A stretch of 64,000 nucleotides of DNA, from the IMG/VR virus record IMGVR_UViG_3300020718_000007, positions 84,390-148,389 of that record, one strand, 5' to 3'. The stretch comes from a virus (lineage: Duplodnaviria; Heunggongvirae; Uroviricota; Caudoviricetes). Positions 2,852 to 49,366 of this stretch are shown here, piece by piece; the first letter of the stretch is position 1; every line of letters starts with the position of its first letter. A program made the translations under genes and the position numbers. The notes under the pieces are model-generated. The model was not told the origin of the DNA. It was given only the letters and a program-made list of their open reading frames with translations, and searched no databases.

Positions 2852-5470
2852 ATGCCTAAAATTAACTTATTAACCATCCAATCTGGAGATAGTCAGGCAA
2901 CATTGATTGATAAAATTAACTACAATTACGATCAATTATTAACTGCAGGTGGGGGACCACAAGGAATTCAGGGTAGAATTGGAATAACCGGCCCTGTTGG
3001 ACCTCAGGGTGAGATTGGTGTTGCGGGGCCTCAGGGGCAGGAGGGATCAAAGTGGTTTGTTTCTTCGCTTAGTCCAACGGGGGGTAGTCCATTAGGTATT
3101 CCTATTGCGGGTGATTACTGGCTGAGAGATGGGGATAAAGAAATCCTTATATTTGGACCTTCTGGAGCAGGATTGGATTGGGTTGATTCTGGATATAATT
3201 TAAGAGCGGATCAAATCTTTTCTGTTACAGGAAGCAACTGGAATACAACAACATCTAATTTTGATTCAGATGTTGCATATTATAGTCAAAATGATGTAGG
3301 TGATTTTTCTTTACTACTATCTGATTGGGGAATACAAGGAACTGGAACAAATTATGCTGGTGCAACATTATATGGTCTAAACTCAGAAAAGTCTAAATTT
3401 AAAATAGCTACATCATTAACAACAACTTATAGTAACCTTATATCTTTTGGTCGTTCTGATTTGGATAGCTCAAACTATGGGTCCCCGACATTTTCAAATA
3501 CACATAATCCTGTAATAAAATGGTCTACATCTCCTGGTATTGGTGCTACCGCAGGAACACCAAATATATGGGATATTAGATTTTATAATCCTATTGGTAA
3601 TTGGGATATGATAACAACTGGAGGAAATATTGGATTTAATTCTAATGGATTAAATAAAATAGAAACAACAGGTCTAACAGGGGGAACAATAGTTAATTTT
3701 TCATCTGGTGGATATTTTCAGGTTCTTCCTGGAGGATCAACTGGTTCTTCTTCGTCCCCATATTTTGGAGTAAATTCCATCGGAGCTGGTATAAAAACAA
3801 CAGCAGTTGCCAATACATTAGCAGTTAAGGGATCTGCATCATTTGCCCTTAATGATAGTTATAATTCTTTTGGGCTTTCTGGTGGATATGTTGGTGTTGA
3901 AAGGGGATTAAGAATAGCAGCAACCGGAGCAGCAGCTAATAATTTAACAGTAAAAGGTAGTGGATCTATAGGACAAACTGATTCCTATAATTCATTTTCT
4001 ATGCCAGCTGGATATTTTGGAATAGAAAATGGACTTAGAGTTGGTGCAACTGGATTTAATCCTTATGGAATACCGACAGGTACTGGCCCTGGTGCAACTG
4101 GATACTTACTTGGTGCAACAGAAGCTTATACTTATACAGGAGCTACTGGTACTTTTGTAACTCCAATGGCATTAATTTCAGGACAAGGAAACGGAGCAGT
4201 ATTCCAAGCAAGATTAGATAATCCTACTGGGCCCAATGCTATATTGTCTTGGGGTGATTCTACAATCTATCCATTTAATAACCCAATTATAAATAATCTA
4301 TCGCAGGAATATATTTCTTCAACAGGACCGATTCCTGTTGGGACATTCTTTGCTGGATATTATCATGGTGCTGGTAATTCTACTGGTGCAGGAAGTTATA
4401 GTAGCGCTTCTCTTTCTACGCCAGATCCAATTACTCAATTCCAAATCGTTTCTCAATATGGAATTGGAACACATGTTACAACATATGGACAAGGAGATAC
4501 ATTAAATTTATTTTCTAGATTATGGGGTCCCCAAACAACAAGTGCTAAAGTAGTACTCGGAGTAAATGGAATAGGGGTAGTACAGGCATTTCAAACCGGC
4601 GTTAGAATAAATGCTCAAAATTCTACTGTTCCTGATGGGCATACAAATTTAAGTGTAGAAGATGATTATGCTGGTCAAGGTTCATATTTTGGCCCAAGGG
4701 CAACAACAACAGCAGCTTGGCAAACACCAAGTGCATTAACTTATTGGCCTTATGGATGTCAACCAACACCAGCACCGATGGGTACAGTAAATAGGATTAA
4801 AGTTATTGGAAATAGCTCCGGTGACGGAATGAATGGTATAAATATTGCCCAGGAATTTGATAGTACTCCGTCAGGAATAAGTATCGGTGTAGTTGGATGT
4901 TTTGAAGGAAGTACTTCTTCTCCAAAAGCATTAACTATTACTGATTATGACCATTATACCCATATTGGTAATGTATATAGTACAATAACCTGGGATGGTA
5001 AAATGACTCTTGGGAAAAGATCCAATTTGGTAGGTACAACAATTACTAATATCTCCTTTGATTCATCCTTATCATCCTATGGGCCAGATACTGCTTCCTT
5101 GTTTACATATGGGGATATTAGCTGTAATGGTGTTGTTAGATCTGTAGGTGGATTTGCTTCTTCTGGATATTTTTATCCATCAAGTAGGAAATTAAAAGAT
5201 GACATACAGCCATTAACTTTAGGCCTAGATAAATTATTAAAATTAAATCCAGTTAGTTTTAATTGGAAAAAGAACGGAAAGCATGATATTGGTTTTATTG
5301 CAGAAGAAGTATTTGAAATTATTCCAGAGGCTGTATCTATAAATAGTGATGGCGAGGTAGAAGGATATGACCCAGGTAAAATAATTCCATTATTAACAAA
5401 AAGTATACAAGAACTAATATCTCAGGTAGCAGATCTTAGAAAAGAAATTGAAGTACTAAAACAAAAATAA
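2852..5470 (+). CDS. tail fibre/tail spike protein with N-terminal collagen-like Gly-X-Y repeats and C-terminal intramolecular-chaperone (peptidase S74-like) autoprocessing domain
   Basis: Gly-X-Y run GGGPQGIQGRIGITGPVGPQGEIGVAGPQGQEGSK (about nt 2948-3052); C-terminal ~95 aa YPSSRKLKDDIQPL...ISQVADLRKEIEVLKQK matches the Ser-Lys dyad chaperone domain of tail fibres and endosialidases (about nt 5170-5467). Confidence 0.7.
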   Translation: MPKINLLTIQSGDSQATLIDKINYNYDQLLTAGGGPQGIQGRIGITGPVGPQGEIGVAGPQGQEGSKWFVSSLSPTGGSPLGIPIAGDYWLRDGDKEILIFGPSGAGLDWVDSGYNLRADQIFSVTGSNWNTTTSNFDSDVAYYSQNDVGDFSLLLSDWGIQGTGTNYAGATLYGLNSEKSKFKIATSLTTTYSNLISFGRSDLDSSNYGSPTFSNTHNPVIKWSTSPGIGATAGTPNIWDIRFYNPIGNWDMITTGGNIGFNSNGLNKIETTGLTGGTIVNFSSGGYFQVLPGGSTGSSSSPYFGVNSIGAGIKTTAVANTLAVKGSASFALNDSYNSFGLSGGYVGVERGLRIAATGAAANNLTVKGSGSIGQTDSYNSFSMPAGYFGIENGLRVGATGFNPYGIPTGTGPGATGYLLGATEAYTYTGATGTFVTPMALISGQGNGAVFQARLDNPTGPNAILSWGDSTIYPFNNPIINNLSQEYISSTGPIPVGTFFAGYYHGAGNSTGAGSYSSASLSTPDPITQFQIVSQYGIGTHVTTYGQGDTLNLFSRLWGPQTTSAKVVLGVNGIGVVQAFQTGVRINAQNSTVPDGHTNLSVEDDYAGQGSYFGPRATTTAAWQTPSALTYWPYGCQPTPAPMGTVNRIKVIGNSSGDGMNGINIAQEFDSTPSGISIGVVGCFEGSTSSPKALTITDYDHYTHIGNVYSTITWDGKMTLGKRSNLVGTTITNISFDSSLSSYGPDTASLFTYGDISCNGVVRSVGGFASSGYFYPSSRKLKDDIQPLTLGLDKLLKLNPVSFNWKKNGKHDIGFIAEEVFEIIPEAVSINSDGEVEGYDPGKIIPLLTKSIQELISQVADLRKEIEVLKQK

Positions 5471-20474: not shown

Positions 20475-20495
20475 TTTTTAAACACCCAAATAGAA

Positions 20496-25883: not shown

Positions 25884-25905
25884 AATAATCCTTTACTAAT
25901 CATTA

Positions 25906-25933
25906 AAAAGGCACCTTTTGGTGCCTTTTTTTA
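25906..25933 (+). terminator. rho-independent terminator
   Basis: AAAAGGCACC-TTTT-GGTGCCTTTTTTT. Confidence 0.55.
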
Positions 25934-25955: not shown

Positions 25956-28900
25956 GTGGATTATTCTATAATCAGTATAAATAAGCAGGTAATGAAGAAG
26001 AAAATAATTTATATTGCTCCTCACCTCTCTACTGGAGGACTTCCCCAATATCTTTTCAAAAAAATCGACCTATTAAAGGATAAACTTGAAATATATTGTG
26101 TGGAATATAACGATATAACAGGAGGACAACTTGTAGTACAAAAGAATAGGATTCAGTCTATATTGGATGGTAAACATTTTATTACACTTGGCAGTGATAA
26201 GAATGAACTTATTAGACTAATAGAAAGGATTAAACCTGATTATGTCCATCTGGAAGAAATTCCAGAGGATGGTGGATGGGGTTGGGCGAAGGGTACGTTG
26301 GAAAAAATATATTCTCTGGATAGAACTTATAAAATATTTGAAACTAGCCACGATTCATCATTTGAACCAGACACAAGAAAAATATATTTTCCCGACGCAT
26401 TTTTCTTTGTTAGTAAATGGCAAATAGATCAGTATAAGAATATTAATGTTCCTAAGTATTTGGCAGAATATCCTATAGAATATAGGGAAAGACCAGATAG
26501 GAATTCTTCACTAATTAGCCTGGGATTAGACCCATCCAAAAAACACATTCTTAATGTTGGCCTATTTACACCAAGAAAAAACCAGGGTGAAATATTTGAA
26601 ATTGCTAGATCTTTTGGAGAAGATGTACAATTTCATTTTCTTGGAAACCAGGCAGGTAATTTTGAATCTTATTGGAAACCTTTAATGGCAAATATACCAA
26701 AAAACTGTAAATGGTGGGGTGAAAGAAATGATGCAGATAGATTCTATTCCTGTATGGATCTTTTCTTGTTTACCTCGGAAGGTAATCCAGGAAACAAAGA
26801 AACAATGCCATTAGTTCTAAGGGAAGCCATAGGATGGAAAATGCAAATCCTATTGTATAATCTTGATGTGTATCAGAATTATTTCAATAGATTTAATAAT
26901 GTTACCTATTTAAATGAAGGAAATAAAAAAGCTAATGTAGAGCTTGTTAAAAAAATGATAAGCTCTAATTATATAGAATTTGTAGAAATTGAGGAGGGGC
27001 CAAACGTAAAATATTTTTCTGGTAATTATGACAGGGAGAAAAATATAATTTACTTTGAGGTAATAAATGAGCATCCAACTTTAAAAAAATTCAATTATCG
27101 GCTTAGAGATTTTGTTAATGGATTAACATTTCAACCAATTGGAAGAGATTATGATTTCAAAAAAGGTATAACATTTAATGTTGGCCCTAATGCTCGTAAT
27201 GATGACCATAATGGGCTTATCCTAGAATTGTTTGATGGTAATGAAAATATTATTGAAACCCATACATACGAATCTTGGGGTAAAGTTAAAGGAAGTTGGG
27301 ACCCTTTAAGATACCCCAAAACAGAATTATGGATTAACGATAAACTCGTGAAGCTACATAGTCATCCAAATGATCATTCATCTTTTTGGAGCTATTACGA
27401 ATGTGTTCTTCGTGGGGATTATAAGGGCATAGAATCTGGTGATATAATAGTTGATGTTGGTGCAAATCTCGGATTTTTCAGCCTTAGCGCAATTAAGCAA
27501 GGTGCTTCTAAAGTATATGCTATAGAACCTTTTCCAGAAACATTCGATTATTTAACTAAAAACATAGAGGGATTACCTATAATCCCATTAAATTATGGAA
27601 TAGGAGATTCAGAAAAAGAAGCTGTATTTGTTGGAGGTGAAGTTACTTCTATCACACGTCTAGCCGAACTGGAAGAAAAACAAAATGATGGATTTTATGG
27701 AATTAATAAAACACTTACAAAAGTAAAATTAAAGCCATTTAACCAAATTATAAAAGAACAAAATATACAATTTATTGATTATCTAAAGATAGATTGTGAA
27801 GGAGGTGAAGAAGCTTTATTTAATACGATAGATCCTGAATATTTAAAATATAGGATTAAAAAAATAACAGGAGAATTACATTTACGATTAATTGGTGTTG
27901 ATGTGTATAATAAAATAAAATCTCAGCTTATCGAAGCTGGATTTGATTACAATGACGATTATACTCAGAATAAAGATATGGTTATCTTTTATGCAGAAAG
28001 GAAGCCAAAAATTAAATTAGTTCATATAATAAATAATCCAGAAGGGGAAAGAGAAAAATTATCTACTAAATCCTTATCTGAATTAACCAAATATGGAATA
28101 GAATATGAAAGACATATCACTCCATTATACACAAAAACTCCGCCTGCTGAAAATTGTAATAGACCATCCCAAGTTTCTCCTGTTCCCGGTGATTATTTAT
28201 TATCTCCTGGACATTATGGATGCTATTTAGGACATAAGGATGCAGTTTGCAATACCTTCGGTGATTTTGATGGATTATTAGTTTCTGAATGTGATGCTAT
28301 AATACAAATTCCTGCTAAGGAAATGGCAGAAAAAATAAAACAAACCTATTTCGATAATATTAAAAACGATCTAATACTTACAAGTTATGGAAAGTCTCTT
28401 CCTGGTTATCCTCATACTCATGTCACTGAGGATCTTTTCTGTTCGCAGAAAATAGTAGAAGCTCATTTGTATTTAATCTCTAGGCCTCATTTAGATACTC
28501 TAAAAGAATTATTTGCAACTAAGCCATGGGATGTATCAGATCTATGGTATGATACGTTCCTTTCTTCTTATAAAAGAGGAATTTATAAAAAACCATATGC
28601 TCTTCAGGCTAGAGGAGAATCATATTTGGATAAAACATACAAGGATGGCTATATAATCCATGACCATAGTGTTATTTATGATCCAAATTTTATCGATAAC
28701 GATATAACCGTTATTATTCAGACCTGTGATAAGTATAGAAATTTTTGGAATGGCTGGTATTTGGCATGGAAAAATAATTGGAATTGGGATTTGAAATGGC
28801 CAGTCGTATTTTGTAATGAGGAAATGGATTTACCTTTTAATGATCCAAGGATAGGTCAAATAAAATCCCCTGTTTCGAAAGATAAGAATGGATTTTCAAA

Positions 28901-29402
28901 TAGACTGAGTGATATTTTAGAAAAGGTTAAAACAAAGTATGTTCTTTATATTCAGGATGATATGTGGCTTACAAATAGTGTTAATTTTTCTACATTTAAG
29001 GAAGCACTTTATAAGGTAAGATATAATGATTGGAATTGTTTAAGATTACATGAAAAGATTTGGTTAAATTATACATTGGAAAAAACTAGGCATTTTGTAA
29101 ACGAGAAAAGAGTATTGAAAATGAAGAGTACTAGTGAATGGTTACTTACTCATAATGCGGCTATTTGGAATAAACAATTTTTAATGGAATCTATATTACC
29201 TGATGAGGACCCTTGGACAAATGAAGTAGAAGGTGGAGTCAGGATTTCTAAAAAATATACTGATCCTAAAATTTATCATCTCAATGAGAGATGGTATTAT
29301 CAACCAGGAGCATCCCAGAATGGTATCATAAATTCATTTATGGAACAATATCAAAGGTACCTGCAATACGCAGAAGATTTAAAACAAGAAATGGACATAT
29401 AA
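25956..29402 (+). CDS. giant multi-domain glycosyltransferase (GT4-like, FkbM-type methyltransferase, GT25-like, C-terminal unknown domain)
   Basis: GT4-type E..G..EA.A.G motif (NPGNKETMPLVLREAIGWKMQ); FkbM methyltransferase motif DVGANLGFFSLSAIKQGASKVYAIEPFPETF; GT25-like HYGCYLGHKDA; 1148 aa. The TATAAATA at 25975 suggests the real start may be the internal Met at 25992. Confidence 0.6.
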   Translation: MDYSIISINKQVMKKKIIYIAPHLSTGGLPQYLFKKIDLLKDKLEIYCVEYNDITGGQLVVQKNRIQSILDGKHFITLGSDKNELIRLIERIKPDYVHLEEIPEDGGWGWAKGTLEKIYSLDRTYKIFETSHDSSFEPDTRKIYFPDAFFFVSKWQIDQYKNINVPKYLAEYPIEYRERPDRNSSLISLGLDPSKKHILNVGLFTPRKNQGEIFEIARSFGEDVQFHFLGNQAGNFESYWKPLMANIPKNCKWWGERNDADRFYSCMDLFLFTSEGNPGNKETMPLVLREAIGWKMQILLYNLDVYQNYFNRFNNVTYLNEGNKKANVELVKKMISSNYIEFVEIEEGPNVKYFSGNYDREKNIIYFEVINEHPTLKKFNYRLRDFVNGLTFQPIGRDYDFKKGITFNVGPNARNDDHNGLILELFDGNENIIETHTYESWGKVKGSWDPLRYPKTELWINDKLVKLHSHPNDHSSFWSYYECVLRGDYKGIESGDIIVDVGANLGFFSLSAIKQGASKVYAIEPFPETFDYLTKNIEGLPIIPLNYGIGDSEKEAVFVGGEVTSITRLAELEEKQNDGFYGINKTLTKVKLKPFNQIIKEQNIQFIDYLKIDCEGGEEALFNTIDPEYLKYRIKKITGELHLRLIGVDVYNKIKSQLIEAGFDYNDDYTQNKDMVIFYAERKPKIKLVHIINNPEGEREKLSTKSLSELTKYGIEYERHITPLYTKTPPAENCNRPSQVSPVPGDYLLSPGHYGCYLGHKDAVCNTFGDFDGLLVSECDAIIQIPAKEMAEKIKQTYFDNIKNDLILTSYGKSLPGYPHTHVTEDLFCSQKIVEAHLYLISRPHLDTLKELFATKPWDVSDLWYDTFLSSYKRGIYKKPYALQARGESYLDKTYKDGYIIHDHSVIYDPNFIDNDITVIIQTCDKYRNFWNGWYLAWKNNWNWDLKWPVVFCNEEMDLPFNDPRIGQIKSPVSKDKNGFSNRLSDILEKVKTKYVLYIQDDMWLTNSVNFSTFKEALYKVRYNDWNCLRLHEKIWLNYTLEKTRHFVNEKRVLKMKSTSEWLLTHNAAIWNKQFLMESILPDEDPWTNEVEGGVRISKKYTDPKIYHLNERWYYQPGASQNGIINSFMEQYQRYLQYAEDLKQEMDI

Positions 29403-29403
29403 T

Positions 29404-32400
29404 ATGGTAACGAAAGATAATTTACTGATTTGCTCTGTTAGGTGGAGCGAAGATTCACCTGGATTTAAGAACGCATTCTATACTCCAATTGAGCAATATA
29501 ATAATACAGGCTTAACCTATAAAATTTTCCAATACGAAAAGGAGCCTGAAATGGAAGCTCTATTTATTCAACGATATGGTTGGTTGGGTGAATATATTTA
29601 TTATAGGGTTTTTAAGTTATACGAATCTTTAAGGAAAGAGATAAAGGAAAATAATTATGACTATATCTTATTTATAGATTATAATGATACTATGTTTGTT
29701 GGTAATGCCAGAGAATTACTAATGAAGCTCAATCAGGTTAAAGCTGCCACCCTTCTGGGTGGAGAAATAACTAAATTTCCAGATGAGAAGATAACAGACC
29801 TTTGGCCAAATCCTATAACATTTGGTGAAGGTCCACATCTAAATGCTGGTATGCTATTTTCTAAATCATTAGACCTATTAATAATACTTAGAGATGCTAA
29901 AGAATTAATCGAAAAGCAACATATCCCATATACTAGTTGTCAAGGAGTATGGCAAATAATGTACCATTCTAATAAGTACGATATTCAAATTGATGAGAAT
30001 AATGAAATATTTTATAATTTGTATGGTAGAGAATTGAATAGGGATTATGGAATAATGAAAAATCATAGATTGGTTGTTTCTAATTCTACGATATGTCCAT
30101 TATTTATACATCAAAATGGTTGGCCCCATACGAGAGGATTAATAGATTTATTTGGTGAACCATTTAAAGAATATAATGAGTCCAGAAAGAAATTATCCTC
30201 CACAAAATTATCCATCGTAACTTCTTATTATAATTGTGAGAAATTCATAGAGGAACAAGCAAAATCTATATTGAGCCAAACATATACTAATTGGGAATGG
30301 ATTATTTGTGACGATTTTTCAACAGATGGTACTAAGAAAAAACTAATAGAGCTTGCTAAATCTGATTCCCGAATTAAATTAGTGGAGCAGAAACACAAGA
30401 AAGAGGTTTGGTGGAATCCACAAATTCATGCAACTGGTTCTATAGTATGTCCGATAGATGGTGATGATAAGATATTACCCAAGACTTTTGAAAAGATAGT
30501 CTATTATTTTAACAAATTTCCTGATATTGTATTACTACATTTCAATGCCAATAAATATAATGATGTCCTTCCACAGAGAAAAGAAGACATTATAGACAAA
30601 TTCCTTGATAATGTTTATATTTCAAGGGACAATATTTCTTTCTTGGATGCTTTTGAAAGGTTATGGCATCAAAGGTCTTGTATTTTTGGATATTTACGTA
30701 TTTTTAGAAATTTACCAGGATTAAATTTCAAAGTTCATCCTGATGGTGATGCCTGTTCGTCTAATGATGGTCAGTGGCTTTTATATTTAGAAGAAAGGGG
30801 AAAATGCTTGGCTATACCCAGAACTACTTATATAGCTAGGAATCATGGAAACTCTGAGAACTATCGAAATTGGAACATTAGGGGTGAGGCTAATCTAGTT
30901 ACTGATACGCAAAAAAGAAGGCAAGGAATGGACCTAGAAATGCCTAGAATCAGTGATTATTTCAATGAGGTATATGTAGCTGCAGAATCTACATATCTGA
31001 GCCAATTGAATTGGGAATCCGAGAGTAAAAAGATTTGTTTCTTTAACTATCAATACTCCGAAAGACAAAAGTTAAAGTTGAAAGAATTGTTCTTCGACCA
31101 TGAAATTTTCTTTGATGGAAATGATAAAATGTATGATTATTGCTTTATTCGGATAAGGCAAGATAGTGTTGAATCCGAGATAATGGAAATAATGGAACGT
31201 GTTTCGGGAAGAGTTAATCTTTATTGTGATAATGTTCATTTGCACCAGAATAATAGAACTGGTAAAAATACGCTCAATGAGATCAGGGATTCATTGGCTA
31301 AGAAATATAATTTCTATTGGAACATTCAAGAGAATAGAGGGATAATCTATGTTTTTGATAGTATTAAAGGAGATAAAATAGATAAGAAGATAATGGATGA
31401 TGTTTTATTAAAAGGGTATGAAGAAACTCCACTAGTAGTTAAAGAAACTAAAGAAGTAGGAAATGAGTGCTTCTTTACTTTTATTGATGGACCAAAAGTA
31501 ACAATCAATGGACCAAAGGATGCTGAATATTTGGTAAAATTTATAGACCTAGATACCCAAAAAGAAGTCTTCACTTCAATAATTAGGAACAACCACTGGA
31601 CAGCATGTTCGGTTAAGTATTGTATGCCTTGGGTGATAGAAGTATATGAAAATAATATCCTCTGGCAAACTCATAAATTTGACCCCAAGGGTAAGAGAGT
31701 CTATATACATTTAGATTCTAATTCTCTCGGGGATACACTTGCATGGGCACCATATGCAGAAGAGTTTAGAAAAAAATGGGATTGTAATGTTATTTTTTCT
31801 ACTCATCGTAACTATTTCTTTGAAGGACAATATCCGGAAATAGAAATGGTTAAACCTGGCACGATTGTTAATAACCTTTATGCAAGTTTTGGCATAGGTT
31901 GGTATTATGATCAAGCAGGTAATGTAGAAAGATATAAAAATCCTTATGATTTTAAAAGCTATCCCCTACAACAGACTGCTACTGATATTCTAAATATGGA
32001 TTTTGAAGAAGTCAAACCAAAACTTAAGATTAAGGATAAAGGTAGAAAAGTTCCTGGTAAAAGGCCATATGTTTGTATAGCTCCCCATGCATCGGCACTA
32101 GCAAAATATTGGAATCTACCGAATGGATGGCAAGGCCTAGTTAATCATTTAAGGAATGAGGGATATGATGTTGTTATGATTACTCAGGAAAAATTGGGTA
32201 ATCCATGGGATGATGGAAAAATAGGTGGAAAACTAACAGGGGTAATAGATAAAACTGGGGATCGCCCATTAGAGGAAAGGATTAATGATATTAAACATGC
32301 CGCTGCTTTTATTGGTGTTGGTAGTGGATTAAGTTGGTTAGCATGGGCAATAGATACCCCAGTATTAATGATTTCAGGATTTAGCGAAGAATGGACAGAG

Positions 32401-32601
32401 TTTACAAAAAATTGTGTTAGAGTAATTAATGAAACTGGTTGTAGAGGATGCTTTAATCGTGCAAGGTTAGATGCTGCAGATTGGAGGTGGTGTCCTGACC
32501 ATAAGGATACGGATAGACAATTTGAATGCACTAAATTAATATCATTGGAACAAGTTATAAATTCATTTAATAAACTAGAAATCAAAAGAAATGAGCAATA
32601 A
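29404..32601 (+). CDS. giant multi-domain glycosyltransferase (GT2 domain plus GT9 heptosyltransferase-like C-terminal domain)
   Basis: GT2 signature LSIVTSYYNCEKFIEEQAKSILSQTYTNWEWIICDDFSTDGT; C-terminal CIAPHASALAKYW...IGVGSGLSWLAWAIDTPVLMISG resembles GT9; 1065 aa. Confidence 0.6.
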   Translation: MVTKDNLLICSVRWSEDSPGFKNAFYTPIEQYNNTGLTYKIFQYEKEPEMEALFIQRYGWLGEYIYYRVFKLYESLRKEIKENNYDYILFIDYNDTMFVGNARELLMKLNQVKAATLLGGEITKFPDEKITDLWPNPITFGEGPHLNAGMLFSKSLDLLIILRDAKELIEKQHIPYTSCQGVWQIMYHSNKYDIQIDENNEIFYNLYGRELNRDYGIMKNHRLVVSNSTICPLFIHQNGWPHTRGLIDLFGEPFKEYNESRKKLSSTKLSIVTSYYNCEKFIEEQAKSILSQTYTNWEWIICDDFSTDGTKKKLIELAKSDSRIKLVEQKHKKEVWWNPQIHATGSIVCPIDGDDKILPKTFEKIVYYFNKFPDIVLLHFNANKYNDVLPQRKEDIIDKFLDNVYISRDNISFLDAFERLWHQRSCIFGYLRIFRNLPGLNFKVHPDGDACSSNDGQWLLYLEERGKCLAIPRTTYIARNHGNSENYRNWNIRGEANLVTDTQKRRQGMDLEMPRISDYFNEVYVAAESTYLSQLNWESESKKICFFNYQYSERQKLKLKELFFDHEIFFDGNDKMYDYCFIRIRQDSVESEIMEIMERVSGRVNLYCDNVHLHQNNRTGKNTLNEIRDSLAKKYNFYWNIQENRGIIYVFDSIKGDKIDKKIMDDVLLKGYEETPLVVKETKEVGNECFFTFIDGPKVTINGPKDAEYLVKFIDLDTQKEVFTSIIRNNHWTACSVKYCMPWVIEVYENNILWQTHKFDPKGKRVYIHLDSNSLGDTLAWAPYAEEFRKKWDCNVIFSTHRNYFFEGQYPEIEMVKPGTIVNNLYASFGIGWYYDQAGNVERYKNPYDFKSYPLQQTATDILNMDFEEVKPKLKIKDKGRKVPGKRPYVCIAPHASALAKYWNLPNGWQGLVNHLRNEGYDVVMITQEKLGNPWDDGKIGGKLTGVIDKTGDRPLEERINDIKHAAAFIGVGSGLSWLAWAIDTPVLMISGFSEEWTEFTKNCVRVINETGCRGCFNRARLDAADWRWCPDHKDTDRQFECTKLISLEQVINSFNKLEIKRNEQ

Positions 32602-33190
32602 GGATTGGATAGGAGATCAAAGAAGTATTTATACAACACTAGGAGCTAGTAACCACGTAGAACATGATAGGGAAACAAATGACTATTATGCAACAGAGCC
32701 AAAAGCTACGGAATTGTTAATGGGATTGGAAAAATTTTCTGATAATATATTGGAGCCTGCATGTGGATCTGGTCACATGTCAAAAGTTTTAGAAGCTAAT
32801 GGCTATAATGTAACTAGTACTGATTTAATTGATAGGGGATATGGAAAGGATTTTGGGGATTTCCTATTAAGAGAAGAACCTTTTGATGGTGACATTATAA
32901 CCAATCCTCCTTATAAATTTGCACAGGAATTTATAGAAAAATCACTCGAATTAGTAAAGGATGGTAGTAAAGTAGCTATGTTTTTAAAAATCCAATTCTT
33001 AGAAGGACAGAAAAGAAAGAAGTTATTTAAAAAATATCCTCCAAAAGTAATATACGTTTCCAGCTCCCGATTACTCTGTGCAATAAATGGAAATTTTGAT
33101 AGCATTAACGGTAGTGGTGCAGTTTCTTATGCGTGGTATATTTGGGAAAAAGGATTTACTGGTGATACAATAATTAAATGGTTCAATTAA
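32591..33190 (+). CDS. small amino-methyltransferase (N6-adenine/N4-cytosine type, NPPY motif)
   Basis: motif I ILEPACGSGHM followed by motif IV DIITNPPYKF; 199 aa; overlaps the preceding gene by 11 nt. Confidence 0.5.
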   Translation: MSNKDWIGDQRSIYTTLGASNHVEHDRETNDYYATEPKATELLMGLEKFSDNILEPACGSGHMSKVLEANGYNVTSTDLIDRGYGKDFGDFLLREEPFDGDIITNPPYKFAQEFIEKSLELVKDGSKVAMFLKIQFLEGQKRKKLFKKYPPKVIYVSSSRLLCAINGNFDSINGSGAVSYAWYIWEKGFTGDTIIKWFN

Positions 33191-33777
33191 TGGAAAATAA
33201 AGAAAAGAAACCCTGCGTTATTATAGCAGGTCCTCCGGGAAGTGGAAAAGGTACACAATCTTCCTACATTAAAAAACAAACTGGATTTGTTCATATCTCA
33301 ACAGGAGATATAATTAGGAATTCTGGTAATAAAAAGTTAATGGATACAGCAGCTAGTGGAACGTTTATTTCTGATGAGGATGCTATTGTATTAGTTGATG
33401 AGTTTATTAAAAATAATAGTGATGCCAAAGGATTTATTTGGGATGGGTATCCACGTTCAGTTTCCCAGATTAAAGGATTTAATAAAGTTCTAAAAGAGAA
33501 TAATTTAGATCCAACTACTCTAATAATCTTAGAGGCAGACCAAAAACTTCTAATGGGAAGAATATTGGAAAGGGCCAAGAAGGAAAAAAGGCAAGATGAT
33601 GAGATAGAAAAAATTAAAAAAAGGTTTGAAATTTATAAAAATCAAACCGAGCCCTGCTTGGATAAGCTATCCATTATGATGATTGAGAAGACAATTTTTA
33701 CAGTGGAAACTAATGGAGGGATAGATAAAATAAATTCTGAAATCCACAAAATTTTGGATGAAATCAATCTTCTGTAG
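33178..33777 (+). CDS. adk: adenylate kinase family NMP kinase
   Basis: P-loop IIAGPPGSGKGTQ, NMP-binding HISTGDIIRN, GFIWDGYPRSVSQ, RQDDEIEKIKKRFEIY. Confidence 0.8.
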   Translation: MVQLMENKEKKPCVIIAGPPGSGKGTQSSYIKKQTGFVHISTGDIIRNSGNKKLMDTAASGTFISDEDAIVLVDEFIKNNSDAKGFIWDGYPRSVSQIKGFNKVLKENNLDPTTLIILEADQKLLMGRILERAKKEKRQDDEIEKIKKRFEIYKNQTEPCLDKLSIMMIEKTIFTVETNGGIDKINSEIHKILDEINLL

Positions 33778-33805
33778 TTCGCTATAAGAATAAAATACAA
33801 AATTT

Positions 33806-34024
33806 ATGGGGCAAGAAACAAAACTATACCAAGAAGACGAGGATATATTTCAACGTGTTGATAAGTTCGAAAAATACGTGGATTATTTAAGTCAATCCTT
33901 AGAACAAACTATAGCCTACGCAGAGTACTTAGCATCTAAAATGGATCCGGTTTATATGGTATTAATAAAAGCTGGATATGAGCTTCCGAGTGATAAAAAT
34001 AAAATAGAAGATGAACGAAAATAA
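33806..34024 (+). CDS. hypothetical protein
   Basis: 72-aa ORF. Confidence 0.3.
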   Translation: MGQETKLYQEDEDIFQRVDKFEKYVDYLSQSLEQTIAYAEYLASKMDPVYMVLIKAGYELPSDKNKIEDERK

Positions 34025-35237
34025 AAATAGTAAGCCCAGTATTTGTCTGGTGATGATAGTTAAGAATGAGTCGGAAGTAATCCGTAGATGTTTGGATTCA
34101 GTTTCAAAGTATATTGATTATTGGGTAATCGTAGATACTGGTTCTACTGACGGAACACAGGATATTATTAAGACTCATATGAATGATCTGGGAATTCCTG
34201 GATCTTTATATGAAAGGCCTTGGCAGGACTATGGAACTAATAGAACAGAAAGCTTACAATTAGCAGCTGGTAAATGTGACTATAGATTAGTTATAGATGC
34301 GGATGATGTATTGGAGGTCAAAGATCCTGAAGTGTTTAATAATTTAACAGCCGATGCTTATAGGGTAGGAATTATATTAGGCGATATTACCTATTTTAGA
34401 ATTCAACTTGTCAAGTCTTCCCAAAAATGGAAATATGTAGGAGTACTACATGAGTATATTAGTTATGATGGAGAAGGAACTAATACAGAAGATGATCTAC
34501 ATGGTGTAATGATGATTGCAGGGGTTAGTGGAGATAAGAGAGATTTAAAAGGTGCAGAAAAATATTACAATGACGCACTAATTTTTGAAAGGGAACTTAT
34601 CAATAATAAAACCCTAGAGGAAGGATTAATAAGCAGATATTGGTTCTATTGTGCTCAAAGTTATAAAGATGCAGGAATGTATGAAAGAGCATTAGTAGCA
34701 TATCAGAAAAGGGTAGATCTTGGGGGATGGCCAGAGGAAGTTTATGTTTCTCTTTTCAATATAGCTAAAATGAAAGGGGCTCTTCAGAAACCAATAGAAG
34801 AAATTGAAAGGTCCCTTTTAAATGCTTGGGAATATAGACCTGTTAGGTTGGAAGCTGCGTACGAATTAATACGTATCTTGATTCACCAAAAGAGGTTTTT
34901 CCTGGCATTTTCTATTGGAAATATCTGTTTGAGAATGGGCGGATGCGTCGACGTTCTATTTGTAGAACATGATATATGGAAATGGAAATTTATTTATGCT
35001 TATTCCATAACATGTTTCAATACAGGAAACCTAGATGAGGCTTTAAGGTGTAGTAAATCGTTAATAGCATCTCCAGAATGGGATAATATTCCAGAAAAGG
35101 ATAGGGAAGGTATTAAAGCTAATAATGATGTATTCCAAAAAGCTGTTGATGAAAGGGACAAAAATTCTCAAGAGGAAGGAGATCAGCCAATTCAACCACC
35201 AGTTGATAATGACCTTCCAAAATTAGGTGATATATAA
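34011..35237 (+). CDS. GT2-family glycosyltransferase with C-terminal TPR-like helical region
   Basis: PSICLVMIVKNESEVIRRCLDSVSKYIDYWVIVDTGSTDGT (GT2 N-terminal signature). Confidence 0.6.
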   Translation: MNENKNSKPSICLVMIVKNESEVIRRCLDSVSKYIDYWVIVDTGSTDGTQDIIKTHMNDLGIPGSLYERPWQDYGTNRTESLQLAAGKCDYRLVIDADDVLEVKDPEVFNNLTADAYRVGIILGDITYFRIQLVKSSQKWKYVGVLHEYISYDGEGTNTEDDLHGVMMIAGVSGDKRDLKGAEKYYNDALIFERELINNKTLEEGLISRYWFYCAQSYKDAGMYERALVAYQKRVDLGGWPEEVYVSLFNIAKMKGALQKPIEEIERSLLNAWEYRPVRLEAAYELIRILIHQKRFFLAFSIGNICLRMGGCVDVLFVEHDIWKWKFIYAYSITCFNTGNLDEALRCSKSLIASPEWDNIPEKDREGIKANNDVFQKAVDERDKNSQEEGDQPIQPPVDNDLPKLGDI

Positions 35238-35240: not shown

Positions 35241-35618
35241 ATGATTTCAAAGTACGTAAAAAACTATAATGATTTTTTCGGGAATGGTGATACTGTTCCC
35301 GTTAATATCATGGATCATATGTTTAAAATGGAAATTTGTAAAGTACCATCGGAGGGATTGATTGGAAGAGATATAAAGTATGATGGTATGATATTTCAAT
35401 TTGAGAAAGCTCAACCATTATCGTTTCATACGAAAGGTTGTATAACATCTATAGATATAGTATTTATTTTAAATGGCCAAATAGTAAAGATAGAAGAGAA
35501 CTGTGAGCCAAATACACCAAATAATTTTGAGTGTATAAAGGCCGATACTGTTTTGGAATTTCCTGCTGGAACTTGTAAAAAATTGGGGATTGAAACTGGC
35601 TTATTTTGTAATATTTAA
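35241..35618 (+). CDS. hypothetical protein
   Basis: 125-aa ORF. Confidence 0.35.
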   Translation: MISKYVKNYNDFFGNGDTVPVNIMDHMFKMEICKVPSEGLIGRDIKYDGMIFQFEKAQPLSFHTKGCITSIDIVFILNGQIVKIEENCEPNTPNNFECIKADTVLEFPAGTCKKLGIETGLFCNI

Positions 35619-35741: not shown

Positions 35742-36992
35742 TTATAATATTTTTAAATTTTCCTTATTATCAAATATCCAAAATTCAAACAATAATCCTT
35801 TATTGATACAAGAATCTCTTTTAATTAAATTTATTTCTAAATTTCTAATAAGTGTAAACTCTGATTTAACTTCTATAACTTTATTATCGGGTATTATATA
35901 AATATCTATTAGATATTGTCTTTCCTTATTCTCGTATTTATCGAAGTATGTAATTTTACCTATTTTATTTCTTATTTCTTTATCTATAATAAGTAAATCT
36001 TCTTCTTTATAAGTTTTTAAAAGGATATCCAGAGCATAATTTTCATACCCTTGTATTTTAACAATTCTACCAGATGGTAATACATAATCTTTATATTTTC
36101 CATGAAATGGATATTCAATACTCCATTTTTCGAGCATAAATTTTATGTGTTCTTTTGATCCTAAATAGGATTTAAATTGATATCTATCCATACAGGTATT
36201 CTCCCTTCTTATTTTAACACCTTCATTAGAAGAAGGATATTCTGTCCCATACTTTAATAATGAGTAATCTTTGAATTTTCTTTTAAATTCCTCTGTTTCT
36301 GTATACCAATCTTTATTATATCTTTCTTTTATTGTATTTGATATTTTTTCTCTAACACTAGGATTTTTAAATTGATGATCAACTCCATACTTTTTTAAGT
36401 TAGTTTCTTTTAATTTATCTTTAAATGCTTGAGATTGTGTTACGTGTTCTACTCCGTATTTTTCTAATGATGTGGATTTTATTTTATCTCTAAATTCTTG
36501 TGTTTGTGAGTAACTTTCTACCCCATACCTTTCCAAATTTAATTTCTTACAATGTTTTTTAAATTCTTTAGATTGAGTATTATACTCAACCCCAATATTT
36601 TTTAAATTAGTTTCTTTAATTTTTTCTTTAATTGTTTCACTTTGATATACATTTTCTACCCCATATCTTTCTAAATTGGTAGTTATGGTTTTAATAGATC
36701 TTTCCGGATGATTAGCTCCACATTTAATTGAACATGTTTTATTATAACCCCATTTATTAGGATTAAATTTTAACTTATTTGTATTGCAGATTGAACAAAT
36801 AGGAGTAGAAAGTAAGTTATTAATTATATGAAATATTCTCTCTGAATATGTTTCATTATCTATTAAATAATTTGTTTCTAATAAAATAAAATTCTGGATT
36901 ACTTTTGAATTTCTTATACTAGCATTCAATGATGATCTACCTTTATTATCTAATATTTTAGTAGCCCAATTTTTTAATTCGCATCTATTCAT
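35742..36992 (-). mobile_element. putative homing-type endonuclease gene (N-terminal Zn finger, four to five ~35-aa tandem repeats, C-terminal PD-(D/E)XK-like motif)
   Basis: the only sizeable minus-strand gene in a + strand block; CSICN...CSIKCG zinc finger; repeats LERYGVENVYQSE / LERYGVESYSQTQ / LEKYGVEHVTQSQ / LKKYGVDHQFKNP; C-terminal IDIYIIPDNKVIEVKSEF (PD...EVK). Confidence 0.4.
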
Positions 36993-44119: not shown

Positions 44120-45286
44120 ATGAATCAAGACTATAATAACCTTTCCATAGAGGAAATTGAAGCAGAAATAGCTAGGTTACAGGCACTTTCTAAAGACTAC
44201 AAAAATGAGGAACAAGGAATTAAATTAACCCTTAACTCAATATATGGAGCGCTTGGAAATCAATGGTTTGCATTATTTAACCTAGAAGTAGCAGAAGCTG
44301 TAACAATGCAAGGCCAGGATCTATGGAAATATGCAGAAAAAATCATTAACAGGTATTTCCACCAACACTGGCACCTGGATACAGAGCTACACGAAAAGTT
44401 AGGACTTAAAAATGTCAAACCAATAACAGTAGATATGGTTATCTACGGAGATACCGATAGTAACTATGTGAATATTGGTGCAGCATTAGATTCCTGTGAT
44501 TTTGAAGGTAATCCTTTGGACTTTGTATTGAAATTAGATGAATATAGGCTAAGGGGCTATATTAAGAAATGTTTGGACTTATATGCAGAAAAATGGAATA
44601 CTCAGAATTATCAGGATTTTGAATTAGAAAGTATTTCCAAAAATGGTATATTTCTTGGTAAAAAGAAAAACGTATTAAATGTTGCATGGGAATCTTCAGG
44701 ACATGACCAATTAGAAGATTTAAGTAAGGTAAAATATACAGGAGTAGAAATGGTAGTCGGCGGAACTGCACCCTTCGCCAGACTTCACTTAAAAAGTCTT
44801 GTAAACCACTTCTTTAAAAGGGGTAAGTCTTTTGACCTTCGGGAATTTGTGAAAATGCTAAGAGTAATCAAGTCGGATTTTAAATTACAAAAACCAGAAG
44901 ATATTTCAGTATCCATGAACGTAAATAATATGGAACAATATATCCTTTGTGATACATCCAGATTTGAAGTGGCTTCTAAATGTCCAATGCACGTAAGAGC
45001 TGCAGGGTATCATAATTTTATCCTAAACAACTCTAAATACAAGCAAAAATACACGCTAATTCGTTCTACAGATAAGATTAAGTTTTATTACGTAAAGGTC
45101 GGTAGCAAGCTCGAAAACAATGTTTTCGGTTATCTTGTAGGGGCTTATCCTTACGAGTATGCTCTGCCAATTGATATGGAGGAACAATTTAATCGTACAA
45201 TTTTGGACCCTATTAATAGGTTTTTAGAAGCTATGGGTTATCCCCCATTGAATTCAAATCTACTATTAGTGCATGCTTTATTTTAA
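44120..45286 (+). CDS. gp43-C: family-B DNA polymerase, C-terminal fragment (motifs B and C plus thumb), T4 gp43-like
   Basis: motif B KLTLNSIYGALGN (T4: KILINSLYGALGN), motif C IYGDTDSNYV; the ORF begins about 35 aa before motif B. Confidence 0.8.
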   Translation: MNQDYNNLSIEEIEAEIARLQALSKDYKNEEQGIKLTLNSIYGALGNQWFALFNLEVAEAVTMQGQDLWKYAEKIINRYFHQHWHLDTELHEKLGLKNVKPITVDMVIYGDTDSNYVNIGAALDSCDFEGNPLDFVLKLDEYRLRGYIKKCLDLYAEKWNTQNYQDFELESISKNGIFLGKKKNVLNVAWESSGHDQLEDLSKVKYTGVEMVVGGTAPFARLHLKSLVNHFFKRGKSFDLREFVKMLRVIKSDFKLQKPEDISVSMNVNNMEQYILCDTSRFEVASKCPMHVRAAGYHNFILNNSKYKQKYTLIRSTDKIKFYYVKVGSKLENNVFGYLVGAYPYEYALPIDMEEQFNRTILDPINRFLEAMGYPPLNSNLLLVHALF

Positions 45287-48285: not shown

Positions 48286-48326
48286 CTCAAGACGGGAAAA
48301 GTACTGATACCCGCCGTGAACAAAGT

Positions 48327-48345: not shown

Positions 48346-48351
48346 CAAACT

Positions 48352-49361: not shown

Positions 49362-49366
49362 CATAT

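Follow-up and report, generated by a model that had tools for sequence, protein, structure and literature searches.

Gene content and layout of the island

The window, a 64,000-nucleotide stretch of a phage genome of about 474 kb (473,921 bp), contains an island in which three proteins carry seven glycosyltransferase-type (GT) domains (two GT-B and five GT-A) and one FkbM methyltransferase domain. The features are as follows:

25905..25930, + strand: terminator-like hairpin, an 11-bp stem and then a T run, between the dUTPase gene and ORF1
25992..29402, + strand: ORF1, 1136 aa, five-domain soluble enzyme with no transmembrane segment
25992..26981, + strand: ORF1 aa 1-330, GT4-type GT-B domain with a conserved E-x7-E motif
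26982..27431, + strand: ORF1 aa 331-480, conserved middle domain
27432..27986, + strand: ORF1 aa 481-665, FkbM-family SAM-dependent methyltransferase domain (Pfam, NCBIfam)
27987..28706, + strand: ORF1 aa 666-905, GT25-like GT-A domain
28707..29399, + strand: ORF1 aa 906-1136, second GT-A-fold domain with a YIQDDMW (DxD-like) motif
29404..32601, + strand: ORF2, 1065 aa, four-module soluble enzyme, beginning 1 nt past the ORF1 stop
29404..30189, + strand: ORF2 aa 1-262, LH3/PLOD-type GT-A domain (PF25342) with a D-Y-N-D motif
30190..30993, + strand: ORF2 aa 263-530, GT2 GT-A domain (Pfam)
30994..31443, + strand: ORF2 aa 531-680, conserved alpha/beta linker domain
31444..32598, + strand: ORF2 aa 681-1065, BAHT (TibC/AAH-type) protein O-heptosyltransferase module
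32591..33190, + strand: putative amino (DNA N6-adenine-type) methyltransferase, 199 aa, with EPACGSG and TNPPY motifs
33178..33777, + strand: adenylate kinase (Pfam/NCBIfam), a conserved neighbor
Between ORF2 and ORF5: 72-codon ORF
34011..35237, + strand: ORF5, 408 aa, GT2 GT-A domain and TPR-like helical repeat region
35241..35618, + strand: DUF192 protein, a downstream neighbor conserved in all relatives

The initial annotation had placed three consecutive genes at 25956-29402, 29404-32601, and 34011-35237. ORFs were found at exactly these positions, but the first is merely open from 25956, where a GTG provides a mechanical upstream in-frame start; the most likely start of ORF1 is the ATG at 25992, which is used in all gene calls and homologs, including the 100% identical P0084. 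Nor are the genes consecutive, since the methyltransferase gene, the adenylate kinase gene, and the 72-codon ORF separate ORF2 from ORF5. The methyltransferase gene is missing from the relatives L005, L006, and L180 and probably lies outside the glycosylation system. The adenylate kinase gene follows ribonucleotide reductase in L182 and was therefore assigned to the nucleotide-metabolism module rather than to the glycosylation system. Spacing within the island is tight, with gaps of 1 to 3 nt or overlaps of 11 to 14 nt, and the upstream hairpin indicates that a separate transcription unit begins with ORF1.

The GT families in the island, like BAHT, are most familiar as bacterial enzymes, and such a block could arise if bacterial DNA were fused to phage DNA during assembly, a host chimera of the kind the initial annotation had named. 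Independent assemblies ruled this out with a negligible residual chance: an identical ORF1 protein occurs on seven contigs from several samples, each with the same phage neighbors, the island G+C content (0.31 to 0.34) equals that of the flanks, and the gene order is kept in relatives 50 to 92% identical. In addition, the closest bacterial BAHT homologs are no more than 49% identical. The block is therefore genuine phage DNA.

The surroundings constitute a replication/nucleotide-metabolism module (PolB-exo, dUTPase, adenylate kinase, and topoisomerase) without structural genes around the island, and the window contains no nucleotide-sugar synthesis genes. Flanking by DNA polymerase/dUTPase genes on one side and adenylate kinase/topoisomerase genes on the other would suit DNA hypermodification, in which the GTs decorate modified phage bases against restriction, as with the hydroxymethyl-pyrimidines of T4; phage GTs are classically DNA modifying (PMC12619734). 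This explanation is nevertheless very improbable, given that the window showed neither a hydroxymethylase gene nor any other gene for base modification, that the family of the key domain is specific for proteins, and that the FkbM domain, the tandem GT-A domains, and the collagen-like neighbors described below are without counterpart in known DNA glycosylation systems.

Domain architecture of the three enzymes

Pfam and NCBIfam searches bore out nearly all of the domains noted initially, although one GT-A domain had been overlooked in each of ORF1 and ORF2. ORF1 combines a GT4 domain with two GT-A domains; ORF2 has an LH3-like GT-A domain, a GT2 domain, and the BAHT module; and ORF5 is a GT2-TPR protein. 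No transmembrane-like segment was found in any island protein (maximum KD19, <1.5).

In ORF1, the GT4 domain scored 34.6 bits (Glycos_transf_1/GT4; cutoff, 26.4), the motif residues E270 and E278 are invariant, and the domain is 46 to 59% identical to the GT4 gene that precedes BAHT in each of the 21 viral loci with a complete upstream flank. The FkbM domain scored 56.1 bits (cutoff, 22.7) and 65.2 bits on TIGR01444, and family searches gave no match to the middle domain. The GT25 call for aa 666-905 fared less well: the window sequence itself did not match PF01755, and support was weak and indirect, coming from weak matches in 8 of 18 homologs (best E value, 2e-4) and from an AF2 model (pLDDT, 91) whose top Foldseek match was the human GT25 enzyme COLGALT1 (E value, 1e-11). 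The overlooked domain at aa 906-1136 had no match in a sequence-family search and is missing from the ~890-aa marine versions of the protein.

The overlooked domain of ORF2 lies at its N terminus, which scored 41.7 bits on PF25342 (PLOD-GT; cutoff, 27); this domain is confined to the closest huge-phage relatives, and the AF2 model has low confidence over aa 1-262. The adjacent GT2 domain scored 72.1 bits. Among the best fold matches of the tandem GT-A domains of ORF1 and ORF2 were COLGALT1, LH3, and Mimivirus R699; because these were the top matches, the resemblance to giant viruses proposed initially is structurally apt, but as an analogy and not as homology of the system.

The C-terminal module of ORF2 had been called a GT9 heptosyltransferase-like domain within an LPS/glycan-type toolkit. 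It does match GT9 (46.2 bits), but more specifically it is of the BAHT/TibC type: aa 682-1057 scored 323.8 bits (cutoff, 200) on TIGR04414, the NCBIfam equivalog "autotransporter strand-loop-strand O-heptosyltransferase," whereas the LPS heptosyltransferase models WaaC and WaaQ gave only 22 to 29 bits, so that the LPS label is misleading for this domain. The module contains an N-terminal beta-barrel, a GT-B core, and a four-Cys iron finger, and a phmmer comparison with TibC (PDB 4rap) gave an E value of 2e-61 spanning TibC residues 22 to 391. Of the functional residues defined in TibC (PMC4358343), the catalytic D110, K230, W305, R286, F368, and all four iron-finger cysteines (Cys339/342/358/370) are conserved, as are the ADP-heptose contacts; T226 is Ser in ORF2. 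The thumb tip F265/V266, which TibC needs for its dodecamer, is K/I; with this change and the fusion behind 680 residues, the TibC ring mechanism may not apply. By these sequence features, the module is a bona fide full-length member of the BAHT protein O-heptosyltransferase family.

This assignment bears on the possibility that, during infection, the island remodels the host surface (LPS core, O-antigen, or capsule), one conceivable purpose being superinfection exclusion. GT2, GT4, GT9, and GT25 families are common in LPS and polysaccharide synthesis, tailoring genes for sugar nucleotides like those of the relatives are typical of O-antigen clusters, and marine T4-like phages have GTs in their host-recognition region for which this role has been proposed (PMC7029224). 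It is unlikely here: the GT9-type module scored 324 bits on a protein-specific equivalog against 22 to 29 bits on WaaC/WaaQ, its beta-barrel and iron finger are features of BAHT only, there are no membrane segments and no flippase, polymerase, or ligase genes, and the pairing of BAHT with collagen-like genes, including bacterial two-gene units, would be left unexplained.

The GT2 call for ORF5 was upheld (50.5 bits), while its TPR region fell below the threshold (TPR_2, 23 bits versus 27) but also matched designed-TPR PDB entries. Among proteins of solved structure, its GT domain is most closely related to GmaR (E value, 7e-11) and SunS (E value, 3.5e-7), matched over only ~120 residues, and the SunS equivalog model gave 43.8 against a cutoff of 350. 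ORF5 is thus closest to protein- and peptide-glycosylating enzymes (GmaR and SunS/ThuS), and its only link to the ORF1/ORF2 system is proximity.

Collagen-like genes beside the enzymes

The comparison across related phages that the initial annotation had proposed showed a pairing of these enzymes with collagen-like genes. BAHT relatives occurred on at least 581 IMG/VR viral contigs, and the neighbors of the best 80 were surveyed. Ser/Thr-rich Gly-X-Y repeats were present in 32 of these 80 loci, always upstream and on the same strand, and none of the 80 had a collagen-like gene downstream, with 381 kb searched upstream and 504 kb downstream. Where at least 9 kb of upstream sequence was available, 19 of 21 loci had an upstream, same-strand Ser/Thr-rich collagen-like (Gly-X-Y)n gene, and in 21/21 full-flank loci an ORF1-type GT4 domain separated the BAHT gene from the collagen-like gene. 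Ser/Thr-rich Gly-X-Y genes adjoin the enzymes in L005 (ORF2 92% identical), L006/L007 (69%), L182 (60%), and L184/L185 (50%), in the 735-kb phage LR756501, and in the cultured Microcystis phage Mel-JY01; L180/L181, L008, and L009 have no adjacent collagen-like gene. The repeats are proline-poor (Gly-Ser/Thr-Ser/Thr)n sequences with few Lys. Relatives also have genes for nucleotide-sugar tailoring inserted between the two giant genes, either an epimerase, an RmlD-like protein, and a methyltransferase or DegT and an acetyltransferase.

A similar pairing was found in bacteria, in which 22 of the 29 closest BAHT loci, but 1 of 51 more distant loci, had Ser/Thr-rich collagen-like repeats. The repeat gene directly adjoins the BAHT gene in those loci examined, and Methylobacter luteus has its BAHT gene together with one for a secreted 287-aa (GTA/GTS)n protein, the two making up a unit of their own with housekeeping genes around it. 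These bacterial pairs offer independent support for the linkage to collagen-like genes.

The enzymes might instead serve takeover or exclusion by glycosylating host proteins, candidates being flagellin, adhesins, and collagen-like proteins of the cell surface. Methylobacter and Polaromonas, kin of plausible freshwater hosts, pair secreted (GTS)n proteins with their own BAHT, the window phage lacks an adjacent fiber target, and the nearest solved relative of ORF5 modifies flagellin. Modification of host proteins is nonetheless improbable, and slightly more so than remodeling of host glycans: the collagen-like gene is phage encoded and in the same cassette in most phage loci, the collagen-like protein heading the cassette ends in a Peptidase_S74 tail-fiber chaperone domain in L075, and in L061 a single 650-aa ORF separates the cassette from the tail sheath gene downstream.

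No Ser/Thr-rich collagen-like gene was present in the window or ~7 kb on either side (about 78 kb), and tblastn with the nonrepeat domains of the relatives' fibers gave no match in this searched DNA. One gene in the window is a speculative candidate:

2852..5470, + strand: candidate target tail fiber (speculative), 872 aa, with a C-terminal Peptidase_S74 chaperone domain

Its body is rich in Ser, Thr, and Gly, 11 Gly-X-Y triplets occupy 2954-3052, and its domain plan matches that of the collagen-S74 fiber of L075. The target may be encoded elsewhere in the genome or, speculatively, may be this fiber.

Proposed function and known systems

The initial annotation had offered glycosylation of virion proteins or of a host glycan. 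The former is better supported because of the BAHT membership, the kinship of ORF5, and the pairing with fiber genes in relatives, though this phage's own virion target was not found in the window. On this evidence, all of it computational, the reading we favor, at a probability of about 0.58, is that the enzymes of 25992-35237 are soluble, work in the cytoplasm during infection, and add methylated O-glycans to phage fiber proteins, with BAHT making the first attachment. With host ADP-heptose as the donor, the BAHT module would attach heptose to hydroxyl groups of Ser, and possibly of Thr, in a phage structural protein that has yet to fold or trimerize, much as TibC and AAH act on autotransporter passengers. 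The fused GT2, LH3-like, GT4, and GT25-like domains would then extend or branch the glycan, the FkbM domain would O-methylate one of its sugars, as fits the methylated oligosaccharide suggested initially, and ORF5 would glycosylate the same or another protein directly. The likely target class is a fiber protein, represented in relatives by the adjacent (Gly-Ser/Thr-Ser/Thr)n fiber. Counting against this reading, TibC modifies Ser in beta-helix loops and not collagen repeats, the island is placed apart from structural genes, nucleotide-sugar synthesis genes are lacking in the window, and no Ser/Thr-rich collagen-like gene adjoins the enzymes in this phage. If the proposal is correct, dense O-glycosylation would stabilize and hydrate the triple helix and shield the fiber, as proposed for BclA. 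BAHT beside such fiber genes would represent an apparently undescribed route to sugar-coating viral fibers.

The closest known systems are TibC/TibA and AAH/AIDA-I, to which ORF2 aa 681-1065 is homologous over its full length (beta-barrel, GT-B core, Asp, ADP-heptose contacts, and iron finger). The enzyme is likewise cytoplasmic, and in relatives its gene adjoins that of a repetitive Ser-rich presumed substrate. ORF2 differs in being phage encoded, in having BAHT at the end of a 1065-aa protein, preceded by two GT-A domains plus a linker, and in its nonconserved dodecamer thumb tip; no autotransporter is present, and the linked genes of relatives encode collagen-like (Gly-X-Y)n fibers, not beta-helix passengers. 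The six further GT domains and the methyltransferase beside BAHT imply an oligosaccharide, unlike the single heptoses of TibC/AAH.

BclA of Bacillus/Clostridioides spores is also a prokaryotic O-glycosylated collagen-like protein. Its glycans include methylated sugars, and its enzymes are unrelated rhamnosyl-type transferases, not BAHT. BclA belongs to the spore surface rather than the virion, and its repeats contain Pro (GPT), unlike those of the phage relatives. The BclA collagen-like region that is O-glycosylated is Thr rich, and its glycans have been proposed to contribute to stability and hydration (PMC8968730).

Mimivirus also encodes a toolkit, for collagen/fibril glycosylation (L230 and R699), and the likeness to Mimivirus, LH3, and COLGALT1 lies in the tandem GT-A folds and in the ORF2 N terminus, which passes the Pfam PLOD-GT model. 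TM-scores to COLGALT1, LH3, and R699 are low (0.2 to 0.3) because domain orientations differ. Unlike Mimivirus L230/LH3-type systems, no lysyl hydroxylase domain was found; the relatives' repeats are rich in Ser/Thr with few Lys, so the acceptor chemistry would be Ser/Thr-O, differing from the hydroxylysine-O of LH3/COLGALT1.

The enzymes most similar to the N-terminal GT2 domain of ORF5 are GmaR, the Listeria flagellin O-GlcNAc transferase, and the peptide S-glycosyltransferases SunS/ThuS. GmaR has the same plan as ORF5, a GT2 domain followed by TPR repeats, but ORF5 lacks a RiPP precursor or flagellin context.

Mycobacteriophage GTs O-glycosylate their own structural proteins in the cytoplasm (Freeman et al. 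2023, as cited in PMC12619734); as summarized there, one or two small GTs act on the C termini of capsid and tail-tube subunits in Actinobacteria phages (PMC12619734), whereas the window phage has giant multidomain enzymes, a BAHT initiator, and presumed fiber targets. Pelagimyophages are similar in that a marine T4-like contig (L009) carries an ORF1-like and ORF2-like pair. Their GTs, rfaE, and collagen-repeat proteins lie near tail-fiber genes, and the GT/rfaE genes have been interpreted as modifying the host O-chain (PMC7029224); that study identified no BAHT domain and did not tie the GTs to the collagen-like proteins.

The glycosylation island and its setting

The open reading frames (ORFs) were found exactly where the initial annotation had placed them, and its calls of GT4 and FkbM domains in the first large gene (ORF1), GT2 and GT9 domains in the second (ORF2), and a GT2 domain in ORF5 were confirmed by Pfam and NCBIfam. 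ORF1 starts at the ATG at 25992 in the gene calls and in all homologues and encodes 1,136 amino acids (aa). The genes are not three consecutive ones, as had been described; an NPPY-motif methyltransferase gene (ORF3), an adenylate kinase gene, and a 72-codon ORF separate ORF2 from ORF5. In total, the island from ORF1 to ORF5 contains seven GT-type domains (two GT-B and five GT-A) and one FkbM methyltransferase, and none of its proteins has a membrane-like segment. The features of the region are as follows.

2852-5470, plus: 872-aa tail fibre
13637-14407, plus: GIY-YIG/NUMOD3 (SegE-like) homing endonuclease gene
19155-21818, plus: gene pair, DUF2201/VWA-like protein and MoxR-type AAA_5 ATPase
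23968-25386, plus: exonuclease/N-terminal part of family-B DNA polymerase
25905-25930: strong terminator-like hairpin
25992-29402, plus: ORF1
29404-32601, plus: ORF2
32591-33190, plus: ORF3
33178-33777, plus: adenylate kinase gene
34011-35237, plus: ORF5
35742-36992, minus: DUF7487 gene
44120-45286, plus: polymerase domain of family-B DNA polymerase
48213-55017, plus: 14 tRNA genes with small ORFs among them

The hairpin lies just upstream of ORF1, and the genes from ORF1 to the DUF192 gene are spaced by 1 to 3 nt or overlap by 11 to 14 nt, except for a 28-nt gap after the adenylate kinase gene, a spacing that fits one operon; a promoter scan was uninformative (59 sites versus 67 expected). 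The island enzymes are soluble and, in appearance, co-transcribed. The gene order PolB-exo, dUTPase, ORF1, ORF2, [adenylate kinase], GT2, DUF192, topoisomerase is shared by relatives with 60 to 92% identity.

The window has a G+C content of ~33%, carries nearly all of its genes on the plus strand, and includes a split family-B DNA polymerase, topoisomerase II subunits, a gp32-like protein, tail-fibre genes, and the 14 tRNAs. Among GenBank phages, its proteins matched only the uncultured huge phages LR756500-504 (460 to 735 kb), and a megablast search of GenBank phages with the island gave no match. A protein 100% identical to ORF1 was found on a 473,921-bp metagenomic contig (ena:ERZ27271905:k141_26427), indicating that the window phage is a huge phage; the window matches ~92.6 to 156.6 kb of that contig in reverse orientation. 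A chimeric assembly containing host DNA had been considered; the identical protein occurs with the same neighbours on seven contigs from several samples, and the region is not chimeric.

The 199-aa ORF3 overlaps ORF2 and the adenylate kinase gene by 11 to 13 nt each and has the motifs EPACGSG and TNPPY, as is usual for N6-adenine/amino methyltransferases. All contigs of the window phage carry it, the relatives L005, L006, and L180 lack it, and it therefore looks like a recent insertion; its NPPY-type motifs and its absence from relatives spoke against a second sugar methyltransferase, and that reading was discarded. The DUF7487 gene (416 aa), the sole sizeable minus-strand gene of the region, occupies a stretch of 26% G+C in which the skew is reversed and is missing from L005 and L006, where DUF192 adjoins the topoisomerase gene; it was probably inserted as a mobile or homing-type element. 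The two polymerase genes are ~19 kb apart, and the island and topoisomerase genes lie between them. The GIY-YIG gene is located inside the replication module, and a second one lies directly upstream of the window (upstream extension L094, 25-765). The DUF2201/VWA-like gene and its ATPase partner are upstream of the polymerase gene, and the former is labelled "HNH endonuclease" in PHROGs. Faint or partial intein/HINT matches in the topoisomerase subunit genes of L180 (16015-17157 and 20694-22068) were not seen in the window's copies. In the tRNA cluster, the Val, Glu, Asp, and Trp genes are duplicated, and ARAGORN called a tRNA-Tyr with anticodon ATA.

Domains of the island enzymes

The GT9 domain of ORF2, first described as heptosyltransferase-like, is not a generic lipopolysaccharide (LPS) heptosyltransferase: aa 682 to 1057 scored 323.8 bits (cutoff, 200) over positions 5 to 373 of the 374 in NCBIfam TIGR04414, the equivalog for "autotransporter strand-loop-strand O-heptosyltransferase", versus 22 to 29 bits for the WaaC, WaaQ, and heptosyltransferase III models. 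The module thus resembles TibC/AAH-type protein O-heptosyltransferases (BAHT), whose family features were defined by Yao et al. (PMC4358343). It aligned with TibC residues 22 to 391 (phmmer, E = 2e-61); the N-terminal beta-barrel of TibC comprises residues 1 to 97 (PMC4358343), and the sequence alignment runs through it from residue 22, pointing to such a barrel before the GT-B core. The catalytic base D110, the sugar-donor contacts K230, R286, and W305, and residue F368 of TibC are conserved in ORF2, with T226, another donor contact, replaced by Ser and P300 by Gly. Equivalents of D110, K230, and W305 were invariant in 16 of 16 homologues, as were the four iron-finger cysteines (339, 342, 358, and 370), all present in ORF2; the R286 equivalent was kept in 4 of the 16, in the window's clade only. 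Judged by these residues the active site is intact, and by sequence and active site the module belongs to the BAHT family. The thumb tip F265/V266, on a hydrophobic beta-hairpin required for the TibC dodecamer (PMC4358343), is K/I in ORF2, in a loop 3 residues longer and at a position variable in homologues. Because this tip is not conserved, the oligomeric state of ORF2 is uncertain, and its quaternary mechanism may differ from that of TibC.

Upstream of the BAHT module, ORF2 has an N-terminal PLOD/LH3 GT domain (PF25342, 41.7 to 45.7 bits; threshold, 27) and a GT2 domain (PF00535, 72.1 bits; threshold, 23.3). LH3 uses a DxxD metal motif, and the LH3-type domain contains the sequence D-Y-N-D in a part where AF2 confidence is low. 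The linker was confidently modelled as an alpha/beta domain and in isolation had no Pfam match. The model of aa 1 to 700 matched the tandem-GT-A enzymes K4CP, heparosan synthase, R699, and LH3.

ORF1 comprises five blocks in an alignment of 25 homologues. Its retaining GT-B domain (GT4, PF00534) scored 34.6 bits (gathering threshold, 26.4) and has the E-x7-E motif, with E270 and E278 invariant in the 25 homologues. The FkbM domain scored 56.1 bits on PF05050 (threshold, 22.7) and 65.2 bits on TIGR01444 (threshold, 37.7); its substrate is inferred to be a sugar hydroxyl. Isolated sub-regions (middle, GT25-like, and C-terminal domains) had no Pfam match, and profile searches with the two C-terminal domains against PDB sequences returned chance matches only, so structure prediction was needed. 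The C-terminal 472 residues were predicted to form two tandem GT-A domains (pLDDT, 91), for which Foldseek ranked other double-GT-A enzymes best: human GT25 enzyme COLGALT1 first (E = 1e-11 but TM = 0.25), LH3, and Mimivirus R699. PF01755 (GT25) did not match ORF1 of the window even at an E value of 5 and matched 8 of 18 homologues below threshold (best E = 2e-4); the initial "GT25-like" label for aa 666 to 905 is therefore plausible, not proven.

Of the GT2-TPR architecture ascribed to ORF5, the GT2 domain stood (PF00535, 50.5 bits; threshold, 23.3), and the TPR matches in the C-terminal half were below threshold (TPR_2, 23 versus 27 bits; TPR_14, 19.6 versus 23.5), with designed consensus-TPR PDB chains also matching there (E = 1e-4). 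The GT domain was closest to GmaR (7e-11) and SunS (3.5e-7), two enzymes whose direct substrates are proteins or peptides. With 43.8 bits on the SunS equivalog TIGR04195 (cutoff, 350), ORF5 resembles the SunS-family peptide S-glycosyltransferases and, by this score, is not a member.

Collagen-like genes beside BAHT genes

Neither the window nor its relatives contain an autotransporter gene; the relatives have collagen-like genes, with Ser/Thr-rich Gly-X-Y repeats, instead. In L006, dUTPase and the island are separated by a gene (1394-4132) for a 912-aa protein consisting largely of (Gly-Ser/Thr-Ser/Thr)n collagen-like repeats, and L005, whose ORF2 is 92% identical, has a gene of the same kind broken by an assembly gap. 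Collagen-like genes were also present in L182, L184/L185, the 735-kb phage LR756501, and Microcystis phage Mel-JY01.

A BAHT relative was detected in at least 581 IMG/VR contigs, and the best 80 of these loci were scanned for repeats of 8 or more Gly-X-Y triplets in which Ser+Thr made up 30% or more. Repeats were found in 32 of the 80, all upstream and on the strand of the BAHT gene, and in 19 of the 21 with at least 9 kb of upstream sequence; downstream flanks had them in 0 of 80 (504 kb searched downstream versus 381 kb upstream). Between the collagen-like gene and BAHT, an ORF1-type GT4 domain (46 to 59% identical) was found in all 21 full-flank loci examined and a GT25-like domain in most of them. 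The L075 collagen-like protein ends in a Peptidase_S74 (S74) tail-fibre chaperone domain, and in L061 a single 650-aa ORF separates the cassette from the tail sheath gene downstream of it. As a control, viral contigs were scanned with a topoisomerase subunit, which returned no relatives; the downstream flanks and distant bacterial BAHT loci served as controls.

Bacterial genomes support the linkage independently: repeats were found in 22 of the 29 closest BAHT loci (40 to 49% identity; Methylobacter, Methylomicrobium, Polaromonas, and others), directly adjoining the BAHT gene in loci examined individually, and in 1 of 51 more distant loci. Methylobacter luteus (NZ_KE386569.1; L099 8935-11137, ~835.7 to 837.9 kb) has a two-gene unit, surrounded by housekeeping genes (queA, mfd, csiV, and glycolate-oxidase-like genes), in which BAHT follows a secreted 287-aa protein with a signal peptide and two collagen-like (GTA/GTS)n stretches, each followed by a repeated ~90-aa domain. 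This unit may be an undescribed bacterial glycoprotein system.

ORF1-type (~890 to 1,135 aa) and ORF2-type proteins (GT2-BAHT, ~800 aa, and longer GT4-GT2-BAHT fusions) are abundant in metagenomes. The two genes are adjacent on L009, a marine T4-like contig, and are separated by sugar-nucleotide tailoring genes on the long freshwater contigs L008, L182, and L184. The BAHT module was detected in just four of ~50,700 GenBank phage records, those of Mel-JY01 and three huge phages, and the Mel-JY01 protein is annotated merely as "methyltransferase FkbM". The FkbM-BAHT gene of Mel-JY01 (PP395634.1) has Ser/Thr-rich Gly-X-Y repeats on its flanks. There, L010 1-2298 was deposited as two minus-strand "hypothetical protein" CDSs; as many as 149 Ser/Thr-rich Gly-X-Y triplets run without interruption on its plus strand, and the annotated strand may be wrong. 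A literature search with incomplete coverage turned up no report that connects BAHT or heptosyltransferases with phages or with collagen-like proteins. The association is widespread and apparently undescribed, and the island is best seen as a variant of protein O-glycosylation systems.

Candidate target and proposed role

With the window extended ~7 kb on each side by exact-protein look-ups, no Ser/Thr-rich collagen-like gene was found over the span from ~-7 to +71 kb (window coordinates), and the relatives L180 and L181 likewise lack a local one. The domains outside the repeats in the L005 and L006 fibres had no tblastn match in the window and extensions, and a large protein search with the L005 fibre N-terminus, aimed at an orthologue on the 474-kb source contig, gave no hits. 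The sole candidate target in the window is the 872-aa fibre, with 11 Gly-X-Y triplets, an S74 domain, and a body of 20% Ser+Thr and 14% Gly. The relatives' collagen-like fibre had no significant similarity to this ORF or to ORF 62-2812, except for the S74 domain shared with the L075 fibre. ORF 62-2812 (plus), the first of the window, encodes the C-terminal 916 aa of a 1,877-aa protein (L094 4328-9961), upstream of which lies a 1,180-aa protein; neither matched a family, and both, lying immediately upstream of the tail fibre, are presumably structural.

The BAHT module is predicted to O-heptosylate Ser with ADP-heptose, which E. coli makes, as donor. In the proposed mechanism, it would heptosylate Ser/Thr residues of a fibre protein in the cytoplasm, before trimerisation, because collagen chains cannot be modified after helix formation (PMC8968730). 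The fused GT domains would lengthen the glycan, FkbM would methylate it, and ORF5 would put sugars directly on a protein. As has been proposed for BclA (PMC8968730), a triple helix poor in proline would be hydrated and stabilised by the glycans, which would also shield the fibre. An adenylate kinase acting as an "ADP-recycling" BAHT partner was considered and dropped; in L182 that gene comes after ribonucleotide reductase.

GT genes of aquatic and huge phages are routinely classed as DNA or host-LPS modification, and phage virion protein glycosylation has, to our knowledge, been documented experimentally almost only in mycobacteriophages. Remodelling of host LPS or of the host surface is the published reading for similar genes, given for those of pelagimyophages (PMC7029224), but it leaves the BAHT-specific features and the collagen pairing unexplained. 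Modification of a host protein by the island enzymes is possible, and glycosylation of DNA is unlikely. We give slightly less than even odds (about 45%) to a joint reading in which a large unrecognised BAHT branch O-glycosylates proline-poor, Ser/Thr-rich collagen-like proteins, not autotransporters, in hundreds of contigs from phages (huge ones, aquatic T4-like ones, and a Microcystis phage in culture) and in the genomes of methanotrophs and Burkholderiales; the phage cassette of fibre gene, GT4/GT25-like, and BAHT would coat virion fibres, with glycans replacing hydroxyproline in triple-helix stabilisation.

If so, many "LPS-type auxiliary genes" of aquatic phages would be virion-glycosylation genes, and a BAHT-type heptosyltransferase wired to collagen-like fibre genes would offer a concrete hypothesis for how glycosylated phage fibres are built. 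Such fibres could influence host range, stability, and interactions with mucus or the immune system. The BAHT family, known only from pathogen adhesins, would gain a new substrate class. The enzymes would suggest themselves for glyco-engineering of collagen-like biomaterials. The pairing of BAHT and collagen-like genes follows the same logic as tibC-tibA and aah-aidA, which speaks for enzymes paired with their substrates and against a chance meeting of genes in a variable region of phage genomes.
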